IMG/VR virus record: IMGVR_UViG_3300045988_142058
DNA from: a virus
Taxonomy: Duplodnaviria > Heunggongvirae > Uroviricota > Caudoviricetes
Direction: 5' to 3' (one strand)
Length of the DNA: 47,591 bases
The notes below the pieces were generated by a model. It ran no database searches. It was given only the letters and a program-made list of their open reading frames with translations, and had not been told where the DNA came from. Positions 9,646 to 44,705 of this stretch are shown here, piece by piece. The translations under genes were made by a program, and so were the position numbers. Numbering within the stretch: position 1 is the stretch's first letter; every line of letters starts with the position of its first letter.

Positions 9646-11109
9646 TTATTCAGAAAACAAGTTCAGCAGATAATCAGGATTATATTCCATGACGAACTCT
9701 ATATCTCTGGCAGGTGAGAATGGTGTCATTTTTACATGGAATTTAACAATCCCGTCCATCAATGACGTAATCGTGTTTTCAGACTGATCAAAGGTAACAA
9801 CACCACCTGCAATATCCTGATTACCTGTGAGGCCGTTAAGCCAAATATTCGCACTTGTAACAATCGATTCAATTAATCGACGGTTTGCAGGATTGTCTAT
9901 TTTTGACCAATGCGAAAGAATTAACGTATTACCCACCCAGTTAAACATACGTCGGCAAACACGAAATGCGTCTTTGGGGTCTGTAGATGTTGGATAAATA
10001 GCATTACGGTTTCCCCATGATTTCCAACCATCAAAATTAAGGCTTGTTACAATCCCCTGTCCATTTAAGTAGTTTGCCTGGCTAATGTTAAGCCATACTT
10101 CACTGCCATCTTTACGTACAGCACCGTCCATCTGTAGTTTTATATTTGACGGAGAACGTGATGGAATATCACCATACTGACTATCCAGCAAGCATGTTGC
10201 GGCCGCTAAATGGGTTGAGTGATGGTAAATATTGTCACCAAGTTTCACCATCGGCCAGCACACTGTCTGGTTAGCGGCCATGTGATTATTGTTCTGTTTC
10301 CATTCAGGAACAGCCGAGTAATCACTGATAGTAGATTTATCGGTCGGCGCATCCGTTATAGCTTCTGCTTTGAACAATTCACTAATCAGCGCGGCTTTAG
10401 CCGCCATTAGCTGACCAACTTCACTATCAGAACTAAATCCAGGTGCAATCACTTGTCCAGGAACTAACTTGAAGCGGGGATACACATCTGACAGTAACTC
10501 AAGCCCTGTATTGGCTTTAGTGTTGGAATCCACACCACCGATAATGTCATTTTTAGTTACGGCACCGGGATCAAGATGCGTATAACTAACCTTAAGAGTA
10601 GCGTCTTTTTCGGTAATTTTTCCTCCGCTAATAGCTGTAATGACCGTATAGCCATTATCATCCAGCGCCAGCACATAATCGGTATCAACCGTTAACCCAG
10701 GCGAATCACCATCTGCTTTTTTCACAACAACAGATTTATATAAGACACCATCGTTAGAGAGCGTACCTTTCCCGCCAGAAAGTTTTACTAACTCATCAGT
10801 AACGTCTTTCTTATGCTTTGCTGGATCAAGCACATTGATAAATACAACTGGCGCAACACCATATATTCCAAATGCGACTTTAATTACTTCGCTTAAAGTA
10901 TATTTCTCGAAGTTTGTGCTATATCCTATTTTAGATACGGCCTCTGCGTATGTATAAGCAATGATAGGTTTATTTACCGCTGAGGCTGGATCTTCTAACT
11001 GATTAACAGGAGCCGTACCAAATGCGACAATCAACCCAGCACTAACTTGCACTGGAGGAGTTATAGATGTAGCCAGCTCAGATATATAAATACCGTGGCG
11101 ATATCCCAT
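9646..11109 (-). CDS. Contractile tail sheath protein
   Basis: 487 aa; size and position (before tube, chaperone, tape measure) typical of sheath. Confidence 0.75.
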   Translation of the reverse strand: MGYRHGIYISELATSITPPVQVSAGLIVAFGTAPVNQLEDPASAVNKPIIAYTYAEAVSKIGYSTNFEKYTLSEVIKVAFGIYGVAPVVFINVLDPAKHKKDVTDELVKLSGGKGTLSNDGVLYKSVVVKKADGDSPGLTVDTDYVLALDDNGYTVITAISGGKITEKDATLKVSYTHLDPGAVTKNDIIGGVDSNTKANTGLELLSDVYPRFKLVPGQVIAPGFSSDSEVGQLMAAKAALISELFKAEAITDAPTDKSTISDYSAVPEWKQNNNHMAANQTVCWPMVKLGDNIYHHSTHLAAATCLLDSQYGDIPSRSPSNIKLQMDGAVRKDGSEVWLNISQANYLNGQGIVTSLNFDGWKSWGNRNAIYPTSTDPKDAFRVCRRMFNWVGNTLILSHWSKIDNPANRRLIESIVTSANIWLNGLTGNQDIAGGVVTFDQSENTITSLMDGIVKFHVKMTPFSPARDIEFVMEYNPDYLLNLFSE

Positions 11110-11399
11110 TATTTAACCTCCATGATAGAAGAAGAAACTCTAGAGTACATTACATACTCGACACTGGTTTTATCAGAAAGTCTTTTCTCTGCATCTGCAA
11201 AATCACTGGTTGCCACAAACAAACACTTTGCACCAGGAATATGTGATATTAATTTTTTACACTCTGGAGATAAGCCATTCTTAAATAATTTATGCTTCAA
11301 AATTGAGAGTTGAGGGATTGTTGGTCCTATATATACAAATGTTTGAGCAACATCTTCCTTCTTTTCTATATCTTCTTTACTACTTTTCTTATTAGCCAT
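11109..11399 (-). CDS. Hypothetical virion protein
   Basis: 96 aa, coupled to sheath gene start. Confidence 0.35.
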   Translation of the reverse strand: MANKKSSKEDIEKKEDVAQTFVYIGPTIPQLSILKHKLFKNGLSPECKKLISHIPGAKCLFVATSDFADAEKRLSDKTSVEYVMYSRVSSSIMEVK

Positions 11400-11885
11400 T
11401 TAGATAAACTCCTGAGACTGAATATTCTGAGGCTTTAATACTAGCCACGTTCCAGTTGCTTCCGTTATCCAATATGGATACGGTTGATCATCAAACATTC
11501 GCCATCTGATATCGCCCTGAAAAAGAAATTTCTCTTCAAGTAAAGGCCTCTCCTGAAAATGAAACATCATCCTTTCAAGAAGAGCCATTACCCATTCATA
11601 TCCAGTATGGTCCTCACAAAAACCACCTAGAAGAAACTTAACCTTAACTTCATCCGTTTCAGGCTGCATTCCTCCTTCCGTGGGCCTGATAATCACATGA
11701 GGAAATTCTGGCGGTTTATCTGGAGATGGTTGTGATTTAGGAGGCAAGTACCCTTTAAATATTGTTGGAACAAACAATTTAATATCGCTGTCTGTTTCAT
11801 CATAAGGAGGTCCCTGCACTAATAAATCATGGAAAACCTCATGTTCCAACCGATTTTTTATTGCATCTATCAAAAGATTAATCAA
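11400..11885 (-). CDS. Hypothetical head-tail completion protein
   Basis: 161 aa between capsid and tail modules. Confidence 0.35.
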   Translation of the reverse strand: MINLLIDAIKNRLEHEVFHDLLVQGPPYDETDSDIKLFVPTIFKGYLPPKSQPSPDKPPEFPHVIIRPTEGGMQPETDEVKVKFLLGGFCEDHTGYEWVMALLERMMFHFQERPLLEEKFLFQGDIRWRMFDDQPYPYWITEATGTWLVLKPQNIQSQEFI

Positions 11886-12226
11886 ATCGGCATTCCTCTG
11901 TTAGTATTAACAGTGAGAGTTATTTCCAATACACCAACATTATCTGATACTTCATCAACAATATAATTTTTACCGTTGATTTTCATTGACTGGTCTTTGA
12001 CTGGGAGAACAGGAAAATCTTTTCTTGAAACAAATAATATTATTTGCCCCTGATTTATTCCCTCTGCAAACTCAGCATATGAGCGTTTATTCCGCTCATG
12101 AATAAGGTCTGTATCAATAACGGCAAGGATATCCTTGCCGTCTATGTTATATGTATCGGCAAACTCTTTTTCATTGAGGAATATTGCAGAAATATCTTGC
12201 GCTATAACCTCTTTGAAGGAGTTCAT
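11882..12226 (-). CDS. Hypothetical head-tail connector protein
   Basis: 114 aa; position equivalent to lambda FII region. Confidence 0.35.
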   Translation of the reverse strand: MNSFKEVIAQDISAIFLNEKEFADTYNIDGKDILAVIDTDLIHERNKRSYAEFAEGINQGQIILFVSRKDFPVLPVKDQSMKINGKNYIVDEVSDNVGVLEITLTVNTNRGMPI

Positions 12227-26129: not shown

Positions 26130-26205
26130 TGGTGGCCCCTACCGGATTTGAACCGATGACCGTGCGATTATGAGTCGCCTGCTCTAACCACTGAGCTAAG
26201 GGGCC
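26130..26205 (-). tRNA. tRNA with CAU anticodon, tRNA-Ile2 (lysidine)-like, CCA encoded
   Basis: 76 nt cloverleaf GGCCCCUUAGCUCAGUGGUUAGAGCAGGCGACUCAUAAUCGC...GGUUCAAAUCCGGUAGGGGCCACCA; 7-bp acceptor stem; resembles E. coli ileX from memory; elongator Met not excluded. Confidence 0.8.
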
Positions 26206-33559: not shown

Positions 33560-34071
33560 TGATGGCCCCCGTCATTTCTGGTGCTTTTCACCGTGCGGCT
33601 TCTTAAAAACCTGCCATCACGAACAACAGACACTTCTCGTTTACCCAACCTCATTTCACGGCGGTAACATTCAGAAAATGCCTCGTCCGGCATCATATAA
33701 ATGCGACGCTTCGCCTCCGTATCCAGAAGGGAACGGCTTGGGGTTACATATAAGAACGACTCATCAATAGGGACAAAACCACGAGCAAGAATTGCTGGCA
33801 GAATACCAGGAAGAACGCAGAAAACAGCTCCACGATGCAGCAACATCTGGTACTCCATGACCTCCGTAATCCCCGTAACGACTGTTACGGTGTCACGTCT
33901 GTTACGGCTGGCAACCAGTCGCTGCACACCTCCAATTTTCTGCTCTACAGATAGACGTTTGCTATCGTTATCAATATGATCGATAACAAATCCTTTAATC
34001 GTTTGATCAAGGTAGTGCACCACCTGCGATTGAATCTGGTGATTATCACCAAAGAAGGCCAGAATCATCAT
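33556..34071 (-). CDS. Hypothetical protein
   Basis: 171 aa, second gene of Cro-side operon. Confidence 0.35.
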   Translation of the reverse strand: MMILAFFGDNHQIQSQVVHYLDQTIKGFVIDHIDNDSKRLSVEQKIGGVQRLVASRNRRDTVTVVTGITEVMEYQMLLHRGAVFCVLPGILPAILARGFVPIDESFLYVTPSRSLLDTEAKRRIYMMPDEAFSECYRREMRLGKREVSVVRDGRFLRSRTVKSTRNDGGHQ

Positions 34072-34562
34072 TCCTCAAGCCTCCCAAGTGCTGAACGCCG
34101 GGCGTTGCTAATCTCCTTATGAATCAGCTCGATATCGCTGGAATCTTTATTCTTAAGCTCCAGCACAGTAATCGCATCACGAACCTCTGAAACGGTTACG
34201 TGTGAGTGTTTCCAGCGAGCAATGAATCGCGGACCGCGTAGATTGCAACGCTCCGCAGGCATCCCCAGCTCAGAGAAAACCGCTTTCAGCCTTGATAAGC
34301 AGTTAACAGGGAGATTCCCTTTGATCTTGTTCTGCCGAACCGATGTGCCATCGCTACGCTGGCGCTGACGCTCGGCAAAATCTGCCGCCCATTGCTGGAC
34401 GTTAATCCGGCCTTCCGAATACGCCACCAGCAGCGTCAGGTTATCCGCACGAGGGAATCTCTCGAAGCGATACCAGGCACCAATCAGTGATGACGTAAAG
34501 CCAAACTTTCTGGCAACACCAATTTGGCCTCCATTTTCGTCAACCCACTCCTGAAAGGTCAT
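34068..34562 (-). CDS. Cro-like regulator (HTH N-terminus with ~100 aa extension)
   Basis: 164 aa; divergent from CI-like gene across operator region. Confidence 0.5.
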   Translation of the reverse strand: MTFQEWVDENGGQIGVARKFGFTSSLIGAWYRFERFPRADNLTLLVAYSEGRINVQQWAADFAERQRQRSDGTSVRQNKIKGNLPVNCLSRLKAVFSELGMPAERCNLRGPRFIARWKHSHVTVSEVRDAITVLELKNKDSSDIELIHKEISNARRSALGRLEE

Positions 34563-34581: not shown

Positions 34582-34596
34582 ACCACGATATGTGGT
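34582..34596. promoter_or_regulatory. Operator ACCAC-gatat-GTGGT in cI/cro intergenic region
   Basis: Perfect inverted half-sites, 5-bp spacer. Confidence 0.6.
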
Positions 34597-34602
34597 ATTA
34601 AA

Positions 34603-34617
34603 ACCACATATCGTGAG
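34603..34617. promoter_or_regulatory. Degenerate operator ACCAC-atatc-GTGAG
   Basis: Adjacent to first operator; right half imperfect. Confidence 0.4.
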
Positions 34618-34684
34618 TTTTTCAATGGGCGAAACAAAAAATAACCTTCTATTTGTGGTCCACCTCTCGTCTTACCATGTGAAA

Positions 34685-34699
34685 ACCACTAAATGTGGT
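34685..34699. promoter_or_regulatory. Operator ACCAC-taaat-GTGGT near cI start
   Basis: Perfect half-sites, 38 bp upstream of cI ATG. Confidence 0.6.
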
Positions 34700-34736
34700 A
34701 ATGTATAAATAACCCACCATTCACGATTGATGAGAC

Positions 34737-35393
34737 ATGAAAAGCAACGACGAGAACATCAAGAAAGAAATAGGTCTGCGCATTCAGACTCTACGGAAAC
34801 AATCCGGCATGACTGCCGGAGATCTCCAGCAAGTCACTGGAATAGGCTTAAGCACCTTGCAGAACTATGAGGCCGGATTAAGACAACCATCTATACCTGC
34901 CATCAAGAAAATCGCGCACGCCCTGAAAGCATCAGCGCCTTATATCGCGTGCTTAACAGATAACCCGTTCCCACCCCAGAATACTAACGCTCCTGTTATT
35001 CCTGGGCTTGTAGCTATAAAAAATGACATAGCATCGCACGCCGGAGAAAAGCCAGTGCTGGCGATAGAACAGGAGATTCTACGAAGCAAGAACATCAACC
35101 CATCGTCTCTGTCAGTTCTCCAGAGCAACGATGAGTTAATGTCACCAACAATATCCCCTGGCTCCCAAGTCCTGATTAATACAGACGATACAGAGATTCA
35201 TGAGGGGATCTATGCCCTTGAAGACAGAAATGGCCTGGTTGTTTTGAGGCACTGTAGAGTCATACCGGGTGACAATGCTGTTATGCTGTCAACCGAAAGG
35301 GATGCTGAAATGAACACTAAGCATCTGAATAACGAGGAATTTAAGCGTTATAAAGTTCTGGGCCGCGTAGTTAGTGTTGTCAACTGGTTATGA
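34737..35393 (+). CDS. CI-like repressor (HTH + LexA/S24-like C-terminal domain)
   Basis: 218 aa; N-terminal HTH (LRKQSGMTAGDLQQVTGIGLSTLQNYEAG); C-terminal S24-like fold. Confidence 0.8.
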   Translation: MKSNDENIKKEIGLRIQTLRKQSGMTAGDLQQVTGIGLSTLQNYEAGLRQPSIPAIKKIAHALKASAPYIACLTDNPFPPQNTNAPVIPGLVAIKNDIASHAGEKPVLAIEQEILRSKNINPSSLSVLQSNDELMSPTISPGSQVLINTDDTEIHEGIYALEDRNGLVVLRHCRVIPGDNAVMLSTERDAEMNTKHLNNEEFKRYKVLGRVVSVVNWL

Positions 35394-35435: not shown

Positions 35436-35450
35436 ACCACATTTTGTGGT
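35436..35450. promoter_or_regulatory. Operator-like ACCAC-atttt-GTGGT downstream of cI
   Basis: Perfect half-sites; after hairpin 35401..35416; could also act as weak terminator. Confidence 0.45.
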
Positions 35451-35485: not shown

Positions 35486-35860
35486 ATGGAATTACATACA
35501 GCCAATAAAAACGAAACTCTGATCACTGCTGGAATCGAAATCCAAGCGTTGAACATAGCGATTGAGTGTATGTTATGCCAAATCATTGATAATGAGAAAG
35601 ATATCGACTGGATATCATCTACCCTTCATCTTGCTTACGAGCAAAAAGCCTGCCTCAAAACAGCCTTACAATACGATGTGCCTTCTGTATCAAAGCTGTG
35701 CCAGTCATTGATGGCATATAACAGAGCTATCATTTCTGTATGCCTCATGATTCTCGATGAGAATACCCCTCTTAGCGACCGCTCAGAAGCAGCTCTAACC
35801 CTCTCACGTAAACAGCGACAGCTAGCAAATCAACTGATATCAACGATAGCTGACCTCTGA
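35486..35860 (+). CDS. Hypothetical protein downstream of repressor
   Basis: 124 aa, AAGAGG RBS; operator-like site D upstream. Confidence 0.4.
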   Translation: MELHTANKNETLITAGIEIQALNIAIECMLCQIIDNEKDIDWISSTLHLAYEQKACLKTALQYDVPSVSKLCQSLMAYNRAIISVCLMILDENTPLSDRSEAALTLSRKQRQLANQLISTIADL

Positions 35861-35884: not shown

Positions 35885-36010
35885 ATATGATTATAGTTTT
35901 ATATAATTATATAAAACGCTTTTCATCCGCCAAAAAGTTGGTTATGCTTACCTCGTTCTATAAATATAGATTTATAGAATTATATAACCAAACACATGGA
36001 GTCTCGACAA

Positions 36011-36664
36011 ATGACTATCTCTGTAGGTATTTTCAACGGAAAAGGCGGCGTAACCAAATCAACAATTGCCCGTGCTTTAGCAGTTGCTTATGCAAAGGCT
36101 GGCTGGAATGTATGCCTGATCGATATGGATGTGCTTAACGGAACGGTAACGCGTTGGGTACAACGCAGAATGGCCAACAATATCGAACCAGCAATCGCGG
36201 CGCAGCCGTGCGGCACACCATCACAAGTCCAGAAAATCATCGAATCAGAAGTATACGACCTGGTTATCGTCGATGGCGGTGCCTACGCATCTGAATCAGT
36301 ACCGAAGCTCTCTGAATTTCTGGATATGGTTATTTTGCCAACCAGATTCTCTACCGATGACCTGGAAACCACCGTTAACACAGCTCATGGCATCGTTAAA
36401 AAGGGTGTGCCAATCAAGAAAATTTGCATGGTGTTCTCAGGCGCGGCTGAAAACGAAGCCGACTACATTGAAGCCCAAGAGTACCTGGCTAATACGCCAT
36501 ACTTTGTTGTCGATAAGTACATTCCCCACAAGCCAGCTCTGAGCAAAGCTCAGGATAAGGGCTTAAGCCTCATTGAGTGCTCATACGTTGCGCCACGCAA
36601 AAAGGCAGACGACGTTATTCAGGGGATTATCAACCAGCTTGAGGCTCTGACTACTGCCGCGTAA
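36011..36664 (+). CDS. parA: ParA-like partition ATPase (small, type Ib-like)
   Basis: Deviant Walker A FNGKGGVTKST; start at second ATG with GGAG RBS. Confidence 0.8.
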   Translation: MTISVGIFNGKGGVTKSTIARALAVAYAKAGWNVCLIDMDVLNGTVTRWVQRRMANNIEPAIAAQPCGTPSQVQKIIESEVYDLVIVDGGAYASESVPKLSEFLDMVILPTRFSTDDLETTVNTAHGIVKKGVPIKKICMVFSGAAENEADYIEAQEYLANTPYFVVDKYIPHKPALSKAQDKGLSLIECSYVAPRKKADDVIQGIINQLEALTTAA

Positions 36665-37178: not shown

Positions 37179-37200
37179 AAAAAAGGCCCCCGAAGGGGCC
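37179..37200 (-). terminator. Intrinsic terminator for small-peptide transcript
   Basis: GGCCCC-cgaa-GGGGCC followed on minus RNA by UUUUUU; 7 nt after peptide stop. Confidence 0.6.
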
Positions 37201-37206
37201 TAATCG

Positions 37207-37329
37207 CTACTTGCTGCTAATGTTTATCGTCACATTCAGAGCGTTATCAGTAATCTTCCAACCCTCCCCATGTGGCGTAAACAAAGCTCCAGTAACAACG
37301 ATAAAAATACACATACAGTATTTTTTCAT
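37207..37329 (-). CDS. Small hydrophobic peptide (40 aa), candidate type I toxin
   Basis: MKKYCMCIFIVVTGALFTPHGEGW...; AAGGG RBS; intrinsic terminator immediately after stop; upstream leader carries 15-nt antisense target. Confidence 0.4.
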   Translation of the reverse strand: MKKYCMCIFIVVTGALFTPHGEGWKITDNALNVTINISSK

Positions 37330-37622
37330 TGTATGGCCCTTACAGGCCGTTTCACGGCATCCCCACCGACGAAAACAACGCGAGAGCAAGCACGGCTGCT
37401 TGTGCTTGCATGTACGGCAACAGGAAATCCTCCCCTAAAGTCGGTGCCCGGGTGCGAATCGGCGGGAAGGTCCACAGGTATTTTACGATTATTTTAAGAT
37501 TAGTAATAGGAAAGAAATTAAACGAAAAAAACAGTTTATTTTCACAAAATCAGTAACCTACCCACAATCTGTGAGTTTGCTGACACAACAAGAACCACAA
37601 TTTTTTGATGTATAATAGTGGA

Positions 37623-37753
37623 CTATTATTACCTTTTGAGTAAAATCAATTTGCTGCTTGTGCTTGCGTGGTTGTTTATACAACAACGTAATGCTGAAAG
37701 GACCGCGAATCCGATCAGCACGAAAGAACCGTCCTCAATAGGGCGGTTTTTTT
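37623..37753 (+). ncRNA. Candidate ~130 nt small RNA (antitoxin-like)
   Basis: TATAAT -10 at 37611..37616; intrinsic terminator at 37728..37753; contains GCTGCTTGTGCTTGC (37653..37667). Confidence 0.4.
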
Positions 37754-37772
37754 GTTTCTGCCTACCAATAAA

Positions 37773-37787
37773 CCCACGCTATGTGGT
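37773..37787. promoter_or_regulatory. Near-operator CCCAC-gctat-GTGGT in antirepressor leader
   Basis: One mismatch to consensus; between sRNA terminator and ant operon. Confidence 0.3.
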
Positions 37788-37900
37788 TGTCTCTGTTAAA
37801 ATCCCGCCGTATTGACATGAATGCGCCATTGGTGGACACTTTCCGAGCCGTAGCAAAATCTACGGTCGGGATTAGCCTCCTGAATAACACGATGGCGCAT

Positions 37901-37921
37901 ACCGCGTTAGCGGTTTTTTTA
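37901..37921 (+). terminator. Second intrinsic terminator in antirepressor leader
   Basis: ACCGC-gtta-GCGGT followed by TTTTTTT. Confidence 0.45.
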
Positions 37922-38082
37922 TGCGTAGAGCACTGTTACGCCCAAATTATGGTGGGTCGTACAGGGGCGGAGAAATCCGCGCCGGTTCGTCATTGTGTCC
38001 GGTAAGGCTAACCCTGTACGGCTCACCACCATTTGATTAGCCTCGAATGGCGGTGATAGTTCCATATACTGGAGATATCACA

Positions 38083-38274
38083 ATGACAAACCTACCCCAT
38101 GACTATTACGTCAACCTCGTAAAGATCCTTCTCAAGAAAGCCTCATACGCCGATAAATTCCGCCTGGCTGAAATCATCGAGCGCGAAGCTATGCGCATCG
38201 CCAGCAACGATAACGCTGTTTCTGACGCAAAAATCTCCCTCGTAACCAAAGTAGTTATGGGAGGTGCAAAATGA
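38083..38274 (+). CDS. Hypothetical small protein upstream of antirepressor
   Basis: 63 aa, GGAGA RBS, stop overlaps antirepressor ATG. Confidence 0.4.
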   Translation: MTNLPHDYYVNLVKILLKKASYADKFRLAEIIEREAMRIASNDNAVSDAKISLVTKVVMGGAK

Positions 38275-39452
38275 AAACGCTTCCGACCGTTAACACCCTA
38301 CAGCCTATCCTGCATAACCAGCTCCCCGTTATCACTACTGAACTACTGGCGCAATTGTATGGAACCGAGCGCCAACGTCTGACAAACAATTTCAATAGAA
38401 ACAAGGAACGTTTTATAGAAGGTAAACACTTTTTTAGGATAGAAGGTAAAGAGTTACGAGAGTTGAAGAACAAAAACTCTTTAAGAGTTCCTGTGAGAGT
38501 AGTTAACGAACCATCTTTAAGAGGGTTACAAATTCCCCCGAAAGTTCGCTCCCTCATCCTCTGGACAGAACGCGGGGCTGCACGTCACGCCAAAATGCTT
38601 GAAACTAACCAAGCGTGGGATGTGTTCGAACGGCTGGAAGACTGCTATTTCAACCAGAACGCACAAACGGCCGCGACCGTTACCGTCTCGCCAAGCAATG
38701 CTCGTGAGGTTGTCGATACGCTCAACGCCAAACCGATGTTTTACATTAAGGTGTGCAATAACGAGCCACTCACAACCTCAGCCGATGTTGCCCAGGCATT
38801 CAGCACCACAAACAATTCCATCGTTATGGCCATCGATGCGTTACGCATTCCTCGCACAGCTGCGGCGCGTCATTTCTTTAAAGAGCAACGACCGTTGGAA
38901 GGAAGCGACCGCGAAATAACAATCTATCGCATGACAAAAGACGGATTTACCTTGCTCATGGAGAGCATCGACGGTCCAAGCGTGAAAGATATCAAGCTGG
39001 CCTACATTGAAGCCTTTAACGCTATCAGCAGCGTGTTAAAAACACAGTACGAGCGTGATCTGGCTAAACGACTGTACCAAGAAAAAACGATTATCCGCGC
39101 GGCAACAGAGCATAATCGGCTATTAACGGAACCGAACTACAGGAAGGAACTAATCAAGGAGTTTGACAAGGCAACAGGGAAAACCAAAGCGGCGCTAAAT
39201 CTGCCAGCAATGACTCAGGAAAATGTGATATCAGCCTTACTTCTTGATCTGCTCAGAAACGCCAGAGCACTTATCAGCTTTGACGAAAACCTGAATCCTC
39301 AGCTCAAGCTACTACCACCGACAGGCAAAGTAGTCGACCAAGCTGATCACAACAGCATACTCAGCGTACTGGATGCAAACCTGCCAGCCAAGACACTACA
39401 GGATCTGATAAAAACATGTGCTGATAAGCTGGCACAGAAAAGCAGACCATAA
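38271..39452 (+). CDS. Antirepressor (ORF6N/ANT N-terminus, Rha-like C-terminus)
   Basis: 393 aa; N-terminal LPVITTELLAQLYGTERQRLTNNFNRNKERF; terminator after stop. Confidence 0.75.
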   Translation: MKTLPTVNTLQPILHNQLPVITTELLAQLYGTERQRLTNNFNRNKERFIEGKHFFRIEGKELRELKNKNSLRVPVRVVNEPSLRGLQIPPKVRSLILWTERGAARHAKMLETNQAWDVFERLEDCYFNQNAQTAATVTVSPSNAREVVDTLNAKPMFYIKVCNNEPLTTSADVAQAFSTTNNSIVMAIDALRIPRTAAARHFFKEQRPLEGSDREITIYRMTKDGFTLLMESIDGPSVKDIKLAYIEAFNAISSVLKTQYERDLAKRLYQEKTIIRAATEHNRLLTEPNYRKELIKEFDKATGKTKAALNLPAMTQENVISALLLDLLRNARALISFDENLNPQLKLLPPTGKVVDQADHNSILSVLDANLPAKTLQDLIKTCADKLAQKSRP

Positions 39453-43674: not shown

Positions 43675-44523
43675 TTAATGTTGGAGTGATTTCCAGGTCT
43701 TTCTTAACCTGTTATAACGCTGCTCAACGAGGGATCGTAAATATGCAAGGTCAGCTCCAGGATACATGCCATCAGCAAATTCCTGGCTAACCTCTCTAGT
43801 GATTTGATGACGAAGTTCGGCCTCTCCCTTTTCCCGAACAAGACGCGCAGCTCTCTCCGCTGCTTTCTGTTTTGCCTTTATCTCTCTGGCCGTCTTCCTC
43901 TGACGCCATACATTCTCCATCTGCTCCTGAATAACAATACGCTTATAATCAGCCTCCGTTATCGCTTTTTTAAGCCGTTCGCTATTCTTCGCATTGAAGT
44001 AATTAAGTTTCTGGCTAACCGCACGTCTCCATGCTTGTTCAGTAATACCAACGGTTTCCAGCAGTTGATCACGAATCTCTATTTTCGCTGGCCAATACTG
44101 TTTATTCACCCGATCCCAGCGACGTTCATAATCAATAAAACCTAACTCTTTCAGTTGCGACAACGCCCTTGTACAGCGCGTTATAGACTTGTTCCCAGCT
44201 TCGGATACGGTAGACAGGCCGCAAAAATCAGCCAACGCCTCAGCACTGGCCAGAACCCGCTTAGAAATGATGTTTACATGGTGCAAAATCGCAGCAATCA
44301 CAGCATTAATTGCCCGACGACGATGCTCGTTTATCCGGCGTTTCCGCTCTGACGGTTGATTAACGTAGAACGCAACCTCACACGTAAGATCACGACCATT
44401 AATGCGCTGTAAAGCATCAGATAACACCAGCGGCAGCTTGTGCGTATGGTGCTTTGGAGGCTGGAACTCCGGCGACAAATTACAAACGTAAGCTGAACGT
44501 AGAGACGGCATTGGTCTATCCAT
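43675..44523 (-). CDS. repA: Replication initiator RepA, IncFII RepA1-like
   Basis: ATG at 44523 (MDRPMPSLRS...); block ...ALADFCGLSTVSEAGNKSITRCTRALSQLKELGFIDY... matches IncFII RepA1 pattern CGL-T-S-AG--SITR-TRAL--L-ELG-I-Y (from memory). Frame open upstream to 44685. Confidence 0.8.
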   Translation of the reverse strand: MDRPMPSLRSAYVCNLSPEFQPPKHHTHKLPLVLSDALQRINGRDLTCEVAFYVNQPSERKRRINEHRRRAINAVIAAILHHVNIISKRVLASAEALADFCGLSTVSEAGNKSITRCTRALSQLKELGFIDYERRWDRVNKQYWPAKIEIRDQLLETVGITEQAWRRAVSQKLNYFNAKNSERLKKAITEADYKRIVIQEQMENVWRQRKTAREIKAKQKAAERAARLVREKGEAELRHQITREVSQEFADGMYPGADLAYLRSLVEQRYNRLRKTWKSLQH

Positions 44524-44535
44524 ATGTTCGCTCTT

Positions 44536-44650
44536 GCGTCCACGGAAAACCAACGTATAATGGGAGTTGTCGAGGCGCCCATGGATATGTTTGTTGGTTT
44601 TCCGTGGATGTCGCAAGAAGCCCGCAGATTTATCTGCGGGCTTTTTGTTT
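44536..44650 (+). ncRNA. Candidate CopA-like antisense RNA in repA leader
   Basis: Plus-strand intrinsic terminator (9-bp stem 44620..44628/44633..44641 + TTTTTGTTT) antisense to repA leader; 16-bp stem-loop 44539..44608. 5' end not defined. Confidence 0.4.
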
Positions 44651-44690
44651 CCATATCTGGTCGTTTTCCAACCAGACACCCACAATCGTA

Positions 44691-44705
44691 ACCACGTTAC
44701 GTGGT
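44691..44705. promoter_or_regulatory. Operator-type ACCAC-gttac-GTGGT in repA leader
   Basis: Same half-sites and spacing as immunity operators; ~100 nt downstream of putative repA promoter. Confidence 0.5.

Follow-up and report, generated by a model that had tools for sequence, protein, structure and literature searches.

The IMG/VR virus record IMGVR_UViG_3300045988_142058 is a DNA stretch of 47,591 nucleotides from a phage of Caudoviricetes, and the whole stretch is designated here as the window. The gene at 34737..35393 on its plus strand encodes an immunity repressor of 218 aa, which has an XRE-type helix-turn-helix (HTH) domain and an S24-like C-terminal domain (CTD) predicted to be catalytically dead. 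Leu is found at both of the positions where LexA, lambda CI and UmuD carry the catalytic Ser and Lys. Judging from the aligned sequences and the structural model, both catalytic residues are lost and self-cleavage of the repressor is very unlikely. The best explanation, which we consider quite probable, is that this CI-type phage-plasmid repressor has a pseudo-peptidase CTD and is derepressed intact, with the ORF6N-Rha protein encoded at 38271..39452 as the best candidate for the antirepressor.

The product of 34737..35393 is a CI-type phage repressor, as recognized from the ORF list, PHROG and Pfam. The protein matches the PHROG_4 family "transcriptional repressor" with the e-value 9.6e-27 at residues 4-217, and the PHROG_6201 family "CI-like repressor" at residues 110-214. 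The HTH DNA-binding domain (residues 16-69, 34782..34943, plus strand) was detected as Pfam HTH_3 with the e-value 4.5e-11 and is modelled with the pLDDT of 98. Across the family alignment described below, 36 of the 54 residues of this domain are invariant, and the modelled domain has structural matches to the DNA-binding domains of 434, P22 C2 and SinR. The HTH_3 domain, the membership in repressor families and the divergent operon with palindromic operators together support the assignment. The S24-like C-terminal beta domain, a predicted pseudo-peptidase, covers residues 108-218 (35058..35390, plus strand).

Catalytic Positions of the C-Terminal Domain

An initial annotation of the gene, aligned by eye, had proposed that Leu occupies the nucleophile position, that the expected Lys would be near VVLRHCRV, and that the dyad is therefore missing. 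The two segments in question are N131-D-E-L-M-S-P-T-I139, encoded at 35127-35153, and V168-V-L-R-H-C-R-V175, encoded at 35238-35261. The repressor was aligned with E. coli LexA, lambda CI and UmuD through an intermediate profile of 163 sequences. The three references match the PDB chains 7b5g_A, 3bdn_A and 8gmt_B, respectively, with one residue off in each of 3bdn_A and 8gmt_B; the difference in 8gmt_B is at position 97, where the catalytic Lys is Ala.

In this profile-mediated alignment, Leu134 (codon 35136-35138) is placed at the Ser nucleophile, corresponding to S119 of LexA, S149 of CI and S60 of UmuD. Leu170 (codon 35244-35246) is placed at the Lys general base, corresponding to K156 of LexA, K192 of CI and K97 of UmuD, and Arg171 is aligned with the Arg or Lys just after the catalytic Lys. 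The Gly of G-D-S-M corresponds to Asp132. The nucleophile motif is thus degenerate, with D132-E-L134-M-S-P-T-I139 (35130..35153, plus strand) instead of G-D-S-M-x-P-T-I, and L170-R171-H172-C173-R174 (35244..35258, plus strand) is found instead of h-K-R-h-x-R. The register is pinned by the identical M-x-P-T-I on one side and by R-x-x-R on the other. A shift by one residue would put Arg, not Leu, at the Lys position, and the strand is without Lys regardless, as there is none in G166-P177. Neither Ser nor Lys falls at the catalytic positions, and the early reading of both segments agrees with the alignment. The repressor is similar to the active S24 proteins LexA, lambda CI and UmuD in having a homologous CTD of the common fold and in keeping M-x-P-T-I and the Arg after the catalytic Lys position. 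It differs from them in the Leu residues that replace Ser and Lys, in the Asp that replaces the Gly of G-D-S-M, and in the possible cleavage site, which is not conserved.

Conservation and Selection in the Repressor Family

Thirteen proteins were retrieved by a word-indexed search, and the family alignment comprises 12 full-length sequences, taken as family clusters. The cluster of the window protein itself has 211 member sequences, and the 11 relatives, which share 60-66% identity with the window protein, include sequences of E. coli, Citrobacter, Klebsiella aerogenes, Yokenella and Salmonella. The residues D132, L134, M135, P137, T138, I139 and R171-H172-C173-R174 are invariant in 12 of the 12 clusters, and both substitutions, Leu134 and Leu170, are likewise invariant. 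The fixation of the dyad substitutions in the 12 clusters and the 211 members of the window cluster exclude both a sequencing error and a pseudogene in decay. In comparisons of the window gene with two relatives, the dN/dS of the CTD was 0.10-0.22, at a saturated dS of 1.5-2.4. These ratios indicate that the CTD is functional and under purifying selection, not decaying.

Relationship to S24 Peptidases

The relationship of the CTD to S24 peptidases was settled through remote relatives. An exhaustive HMMER search of 1.84 billion representative proteins with the family CTD profile returned 558 matches at E ≤ 1e-3, four of them at E ≤ 1e-10. The best 150 of the 558 are mostly proteins of 200-250 aa aligned across the whole domain, and the majority have G-D-S-M-x-P-T-I and h-K-R. 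When a profile of 110 sequences (the window protein and 109 remote relatives) was compared with PDB, UmuD was matched with the e-value 4.4e-9 and the full-length lambda repressor with 1.2e-6. AlphaFold prediction on the 110-sequence alignment gave a mean pLDDT of 90.8, with 91-97 in the CTD, and the top-ranked entries in a Foldseek search with this model were 186 CI, LexA and lambda CI. These profile matches and the model indicate that the CTD descends from the S24 domain of LexA and lambda CI and retains the S24/S26 beta fold.

Several results weigh against this descent. Searched against PDB, the repressor sequence alone had matches to the HTH only, and the 12-sequence family CTD profile found no S24 chain. 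Alignments of the family CTD profile with single LexA, CI and UmuD sequences by hhalign were not significant, and UmuD was shifted by one residue. The Pfam Peptidase_S24 model (PF00717) matches residues 113-212 at 18.4 bits, under the gathering cut-off of 23.3. AlphaFold prediction on the 12 family sequences alone modelled the CTD poorly (pLDDT 30-50), and the alignment behind the good model is dominated by canonical S24 sequences, so that this model restates the homology and gives no independent evidence of the fold. These results would fit a CTD that is not a relative of S24, with a coincidental likeness of the motifs. Set beside the e-values for UmuD and the lambda repressor, such a coincidence is extremely improbable. 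The homology, the S24-fold model and the profile alignment with Leu at both positions all favor the proposal that the dyad is missing and that self-cleavage is consequently not expected.

The residue analysis of the remote relatives covers the best 150 of the 558 matches, from which 149 domains were aligned. Ser and Lys are both kept in 110 domains and both missing in 22, while Lys only is missing in 10 and Ser only in 7. The losses of the two residues are associated (Fisher p = 5e-13); they travel together across a broad clade, represented by the 22 of 149 domains without both. By this sequence criterion, the joint loss is the signature of an inactivated clade, and the repressor family belongs to it. 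The dyad-less remote domains have D-x-[ALN]-[ML] and h-R-[WRFH]-x-R in common. The nearest named phage homolog among the matches listed is cI of Vibrio phage PhiPS02 (26.5% identity), which also has Leu at the Lys position. R171-H172-C173-R174 (35247-35258) lies on the former Lys strand; F-R-H-C-R recurs in one remote relative (P0019), and only R-x-x-R is seen in the wider dyad-less clade.

Self-Cleavage and the Possible Cleavage-Site Loop

Ala102-Gly103 (35040..35045, plus strand) is located in a loop predicted at residues 95-107, between the strands 91-94 and 108-111, as read from the sequence and the model secondary structure. This loop is outside the profile alignment and may correspond, by position, to the cleavage-site loop of LexA and CI; in the active enzymes the scissile bond of the linker hairpin is Ala-Gly or Cys-Gly. 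Among the 12 family clusters, AG is found at the pair in 4, and SG, TG, G or D in the others. The loss of the dyad, together with the lack of a conserved Ala-Gly pair, characterizes the CTD as a probable pseudo-peptidase.

Two points tell against the loss of self-cleavage: the repressor of the window itself carries Ala-Gly in this possible cleavage-site loop, and the statement that it cannot self-cleave rests on sequence. The CTD might cleave itself with replacement residues, using Thr138 or Ser136 as the nucleophile and His172 or Arg171 as the base, with the cut at Ala102-Gly103. The invariance of R171-H172-C173-R174, D132 and T138 in the family would fit such a replacement, as would the Ala-Gly pair. 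However, Ser136 is Ala in 10 of the 12 clusters, Ala-Gly is present in just 4, and Thr138 is within the structural P-T-I motif that is common to the canonical enzymes. Across the wider dyad-less clade, W, R or F stands in place of His172 and A, G, I or V in place of Cys173, which leaves no conserved alternative dyad. No S24 member is known to function without the Ser/Lys pair. Self-cleavage with replacement residues is highly improbable.

With a non-cleaving repressor, RecA-stimulated autocleavage would not be the induction route, and derepression would be caused by a factor acting on the intact repressor. By analogy with lambda CI, LexA and 186 CI, the pseudo-peptidase CTD is most likely retained for dimerization, for cooperative binding to the operators and to provide a docking surface.

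Operators and the Early Switch

Exact copies of the palindrome ACCAC-N5-GTGGT were found at 34582, 34685, 35436 and 44691, and an inverted copy with two mismatches was found at 34603. With up to two mismatches, the pattern has 25 matches against 11.4 expected, a number reached by no shuffle, and the exact copies cluster at the switch. The spacer is 5 nt, and no matches were obtained with 6 nt instead. The HTH of the repressor most likely binds these 15-bp palindromes.

The operator O1 (ACCACGATATGTGGT, 34582..34596), found by the pattern search, is directly downstream of the -10 of the leftward promoter. O2 (ACCACATATCGTGAG, 34603..34617), from the same search, is an inverted O1 copy with two mismatches and fills the spacer of this promoter. 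O1 and O2 are 21 bp apart, centre to centre, and constitute a 34-bp hairpin at 34583-34616. The probable early (lytic) promoter, at 34597..34625 on the minus strand, was read by eye and consists of the -35 TTGAAA (34625-34620), a 17-nt spacer and the -10 TTTAAT (34602-34597). It agrees with the consensus at 10 of 12 positions; it is absent from the consensus scan, probably since the scan demands A at the second position of the -10, where T is found here. With O2 in the spacer and O1 right after the -10, two repressor dimers 21 bp apart would block this promoter and silence the leftward early operon.

The first gene of this divergent operon, in the position of Cro, is at 34068..34562 on the minus strand. 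Taken from the ORF list, it encodes 164 aa, belongs to PHROG_7452, a family of unknown function, and adjoins the repressor gene in all relatives. The operon continues with genes for a Ref nuclease, DUF1064, DUF3560 and others. Genes for a Ref-family nuclease (similar to P1 Ref, which is RecA-dependent), DUF1064 and DUF3560 are placed in this operon by the annotation of two close relatives. The Ref-family nuclease is annotated at 19423-19827 of L001 (8844-9248 of NZ_CP048340.1) and at 40066-40470 of L005. The element that carries this P1-like Ref is otherwise annotated with a lambda-type head and a contractile tail.

O3 (ACCACTAAATGTGGT, 34685..34699; pattern search) is just upstream of TATAAA (34704-34709), which precedes the repressor gene. 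This location suggests that O3 is probably the site of repressor autoregulation. O4 (ACCACATTTTGTGGT, 35436..35450) is an exact copy between the repressor stop codon and the next operon, which includes a conserved ORF of 124 aa and unknown function (35486-35860), ParA (35996-36664) and then an 82-aa gene. Immunity control may thus extend to the partition operon or to the 124-aa protein. A further exact copy (ACCACGTTACGTGGT, 44691..44705; pattern search) is just upstream of the repA ORF, recognized by Pfam as IncFII type (43675-44685, minus strand; e-value 7.5e-44), and the immunity repressor may also control plasmid replication.

The relatives compared are L001 (NZ_CP048340.1), L002, L003 (Citrobacter), L004 (Klebsiella aerogenes) and L005. 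The operators between the repressor gene and the leftward operon are conserved at the same places in L001-L004, though the repressors are only 60-66% identical, and this conservation fits the nearly invariant HTH region. O4 has the same location in each of these four, and the operator before repA is also present in L003 (15788-15802).

The Candidate Antirepressor Cassette

The initial annotation had further proposed that induction would depend on the antirepressor at 38271..39452. The gene is part of a cassette on the plus strand. Its first element is a small RNA of the isrK family (37847..37920; Rfam RF01394, 65.7 bits against the gathering score of 50), which is also present in L001 and L002. 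In Salmonella, isrK responds to stationary phase and oxidative stress. The isrK RNA is followed by a C4 antisense RNA of the P1/P7 immI type (37945..38033; Rfam RF01695, 70.8 bits against 45), also present in L001, L002 and L003. A small upstream ORF of 63 aa (38083..38274) takes the position of P1 icd and Gifsy-1 orf45; it was recognized from the sequence and PHROG_7886, which covers residues 13-75 of a longer ORF, and the start was accordingly placed at 38083. Its TGA overlaps the ATG of ant at 38271 (ATGA), which suggests translational coupling. The candidate antirepressor Ant (38271..39452, 393 aa) has ORF6N and Rha domains (Pfam ORF6N, e-value 1.3e-21; Phage_pRha, 1.6e-12) and matches PHROG anti-repressor families with e-values down to 2.7e-60. 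From the layout shared with P1 immI and Gifsy-1, Ant is likely to be gated by RNA; its translation would be controlled by the isrK/C4 switch via the coupled upstream ORF.

The proposal of a dyad-less repressor that would not cleave itself is well supported by sequence and model. Induction through this antirepressor is plausible and is a reasonable proposal for this element. The repressor may also be non-cleavable with the ORF6N-Rha protein not being the inducer, and the derepression would then take another route: an unrecognized small antirepressor, a host protease, dilution through copy number or partition, or spontaneous switching only. This is a real possibility that falls somewhat short of an even chance, and the relatives provide evidence on both sides. 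Full-length Ant homologs are encoded by L001 (89% identity) and L002 (55%; 10919-12061), and no other antirepressor, ImmA/IrrE-type peptidase, or DinI- or Tum-like gene is annotated in a plasmid 98% identical to the window. Against a role of Ant as the inducer, L003, with the same dyad-less repressor and the operators, has only the C4 RNA and a Rha protein of 138 aa (10759-11175) that is 28% identical to Ant. L004, with the same repressor type and operators, is without the cassette at the syntenic site; its sequence, a draft contig, stops 4.3 kb past the repressor gene, and the cassette may be elsewhere. No LexA box was found upstream of ant in either the strict scan or the relaxed scan (near 37500-38270), in contrast to the SOS-controlled antirepressor systems 186 Tum, N15 AntC and Gifsy GfoA/GftA. 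An operator-like site at 37773, which has one mismatch, is conserved in neither L002 nor L003, though the cassette promoter is conserved in L002; control of the cassette by this site was rejected as unsupported. Since the cassette is not tied to the repressor among the relatives, the antirepressor cannot explain the loss of the dyad in the family.

The sole strict match to CTGT-N8-ACAG in the window, at 11898-11913, was rejected as probably a chance match (expectation 0.55). It is in the 3' end of a 114-aa virion structural gene, 13 nt before the start of the next gene.

If Ant is not the inducer, the isrK-C4-ant cassette could be an exchangeable anti-immunity module whose main action is during infection or on other prophages. 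In the ORF6N half of ant, a stretch of about 150 nt (38509-38657) is 86-88% identical to ant genes in about 90 records of Stx-converting and lambdoid phages, which points to recent exchange of the module among unrelated temperate phages. The CI repressors of those phages are presumably cleavable, and the similarity indicates that the cassettes move between phages regardless of the repressor type. Antirepressors that act on non-cognate repressors are documented (PMC3121763). Across the relatives, the ant cassette is a variable spot, with the flanking genes and the repressor constant.

A more elaborate model would extend the preferred explanation, derepression of an intact pseudo-peptidase repressor. 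The former active-site cleft (Leu134 and Leu170, flanked by D132 and R171-H172-C173-R174) would be reused as a sensor pocket that binds a small ligand or a segment of an antirepressor. Induction would be independent of SOS and set by isrK/C4, and the repressor would directly link replication and partition to the lysis-lysogeny decision. This extension is speculative and unlikely.

The Phage-Plasmid and Its Relatives

The window corresponds to a nearly complete circular phage-plasmid of about 48 kb from enterobacteria, with E. coli as the host. The 6.5-kb stretch around the repressor gene is matched over at least 80% of its length by 55 non-mobilizable plasmids of 47-50 kb in PLSDB, mainly from E. 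coli and in a few cases from Salmonella and Klebsiella. Of 62 plasmid records matching this stretch in total, 51 are 95-99% identical. Three Yersinia pestis phages of 49 kb, vB_YpM_39, vB_YpM_41 and vB_YpM_44, match at 96%. The annotation of the 98% identical plasmid includes terminase, portal, capsid, contractile tail, holins, IncFII RepA, ParA and a RelE/ParE toxin-antitoxin pair. No mention of the matching accessions or of the Yersinia phages was found in the literature. In placing the element in a named phage-plasmid group, pSLy3 was considered and rejected, as it belongs to the SSU5 supergroup of about 100 kb.

A tRNA gene is at 26133-26205 on the minus strand (Rfam tRNA, 67 bits), and L001 carries a tRNA as well. 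Between the partition genes and the ant cassette, a match to the ryfA RNA family was found at 37179-37475 on the minus strand (143.5 bits against the gathering score of 80), also present in L001. A small ORF (37207-37389, minus strand) is within this match. The chromosomal ryfA codes for a small toxic peptide, and the locus could be a type I toxin-antitoxin system stabilizing the plasmid.

In these widespread enterobacterial phage-plasmids of about 48 kb (at least 55 in PLSDB, and three isolated as Yersinia phages), repressor cleavage triggered by RecA in the lambda style is not expected. The control point to be sought is an RNA-gated antirepressor or another factor. The result is relevant to the question of whether such phage-plasmids are induced by DNA-damaging antibiotics.

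Comparison with Known Systems

Repressors that are non-cleavable and inactivated by antirepressors have been reported for 186 (Tum), N15 (AntC) and the Gifsy prophages (PMC3121763). The N15 cI was found by experiment to be non-proteolytic; among 271 cI proteins of linear plasmid-like phages, 210 are predicted to be non-autoproteolytic from their missing catalytic sites (PMC10432266). With non-cleavable CI-like repressors already known from 186 and N15, the general concepts are unchanged, and the repressor described here is a further clear and conserved case among the S24 pseudo-peptidase repressors, whose number is growing.

For a LexA-fold CTD in a repressor induced by an antirepressor rather than by cleavage, the structural precedent is 186 CI. 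We take its domain to be without the catalytic residues. It has no detectable sequence relationship to the window repressor, with 12-15% identity in structural alignments. The 186 Tum is small and under LexA control; the candidate of the window, in contrast, is an ORF6N-Rha protein of 393 aa, encoded behind an isrK/C4 switch at which no LexA box was found. In addition, 186 integrates in the chromosome, while the element of the window is a plasmid prophage.

N15 is also a plasmid prophage with a cI-type repressor, but it is linear with telomeres, whereas the plasmid of the window is circular and has an IncFII RepA. Of 138 phage records with a tblastn match, N15 is not among the 40 matches listed or in the organism summary. 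The N15 antirepressor operon is under a small processed RNA (Ravin 1999, as cited in PMC10432266). The N15 antC is described as a member of the SOS regulon (Mardanov and Ravin 2007, as cited in PMC3121763 and PMC10432266), whereas no LexA box was found by the scans of the cassette of the window.

The P1/P7 immI region (c4 RNA-icd-ant) and the Gifsy-1 isrK-orf45-anrP operon have the same order of parts as the cassette of the window. The partner repressor is different: here it is a full-length CI-type protein with a putatively dead S24 domain, unlike P1 C1 or the Gifsy repressors. The primary repressor of P1, C1, is unrelated to CI and S24. The Gifsy repressors are about 150 aa and are without the CI-like C-terminal domain (PMC3121763). 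In Gifsy-1, the isrK-orf45-anrP operon is transcribed, and anrP is untranslated until the IsrK RNA opens the upstream ORF; orf45 and anrP have the same AUGA overlap (PMC4825925).

The Rep-Ant pair of Salmonella phage SPC32H (PDB 5d50) was only a partial match, with 9% identity. The Ant of SPC32H is LexA-controlled. Specific to the present case is the combination of a full-length CI-type protein with a CTD still detectable as S24 by sequence, Leu in place of both catalytic residues, a circular IncFII-type phage-plasmid and, in some members, a P1-type cassette with a candidate RNA-gated Ant, at which no SOS input was seen.

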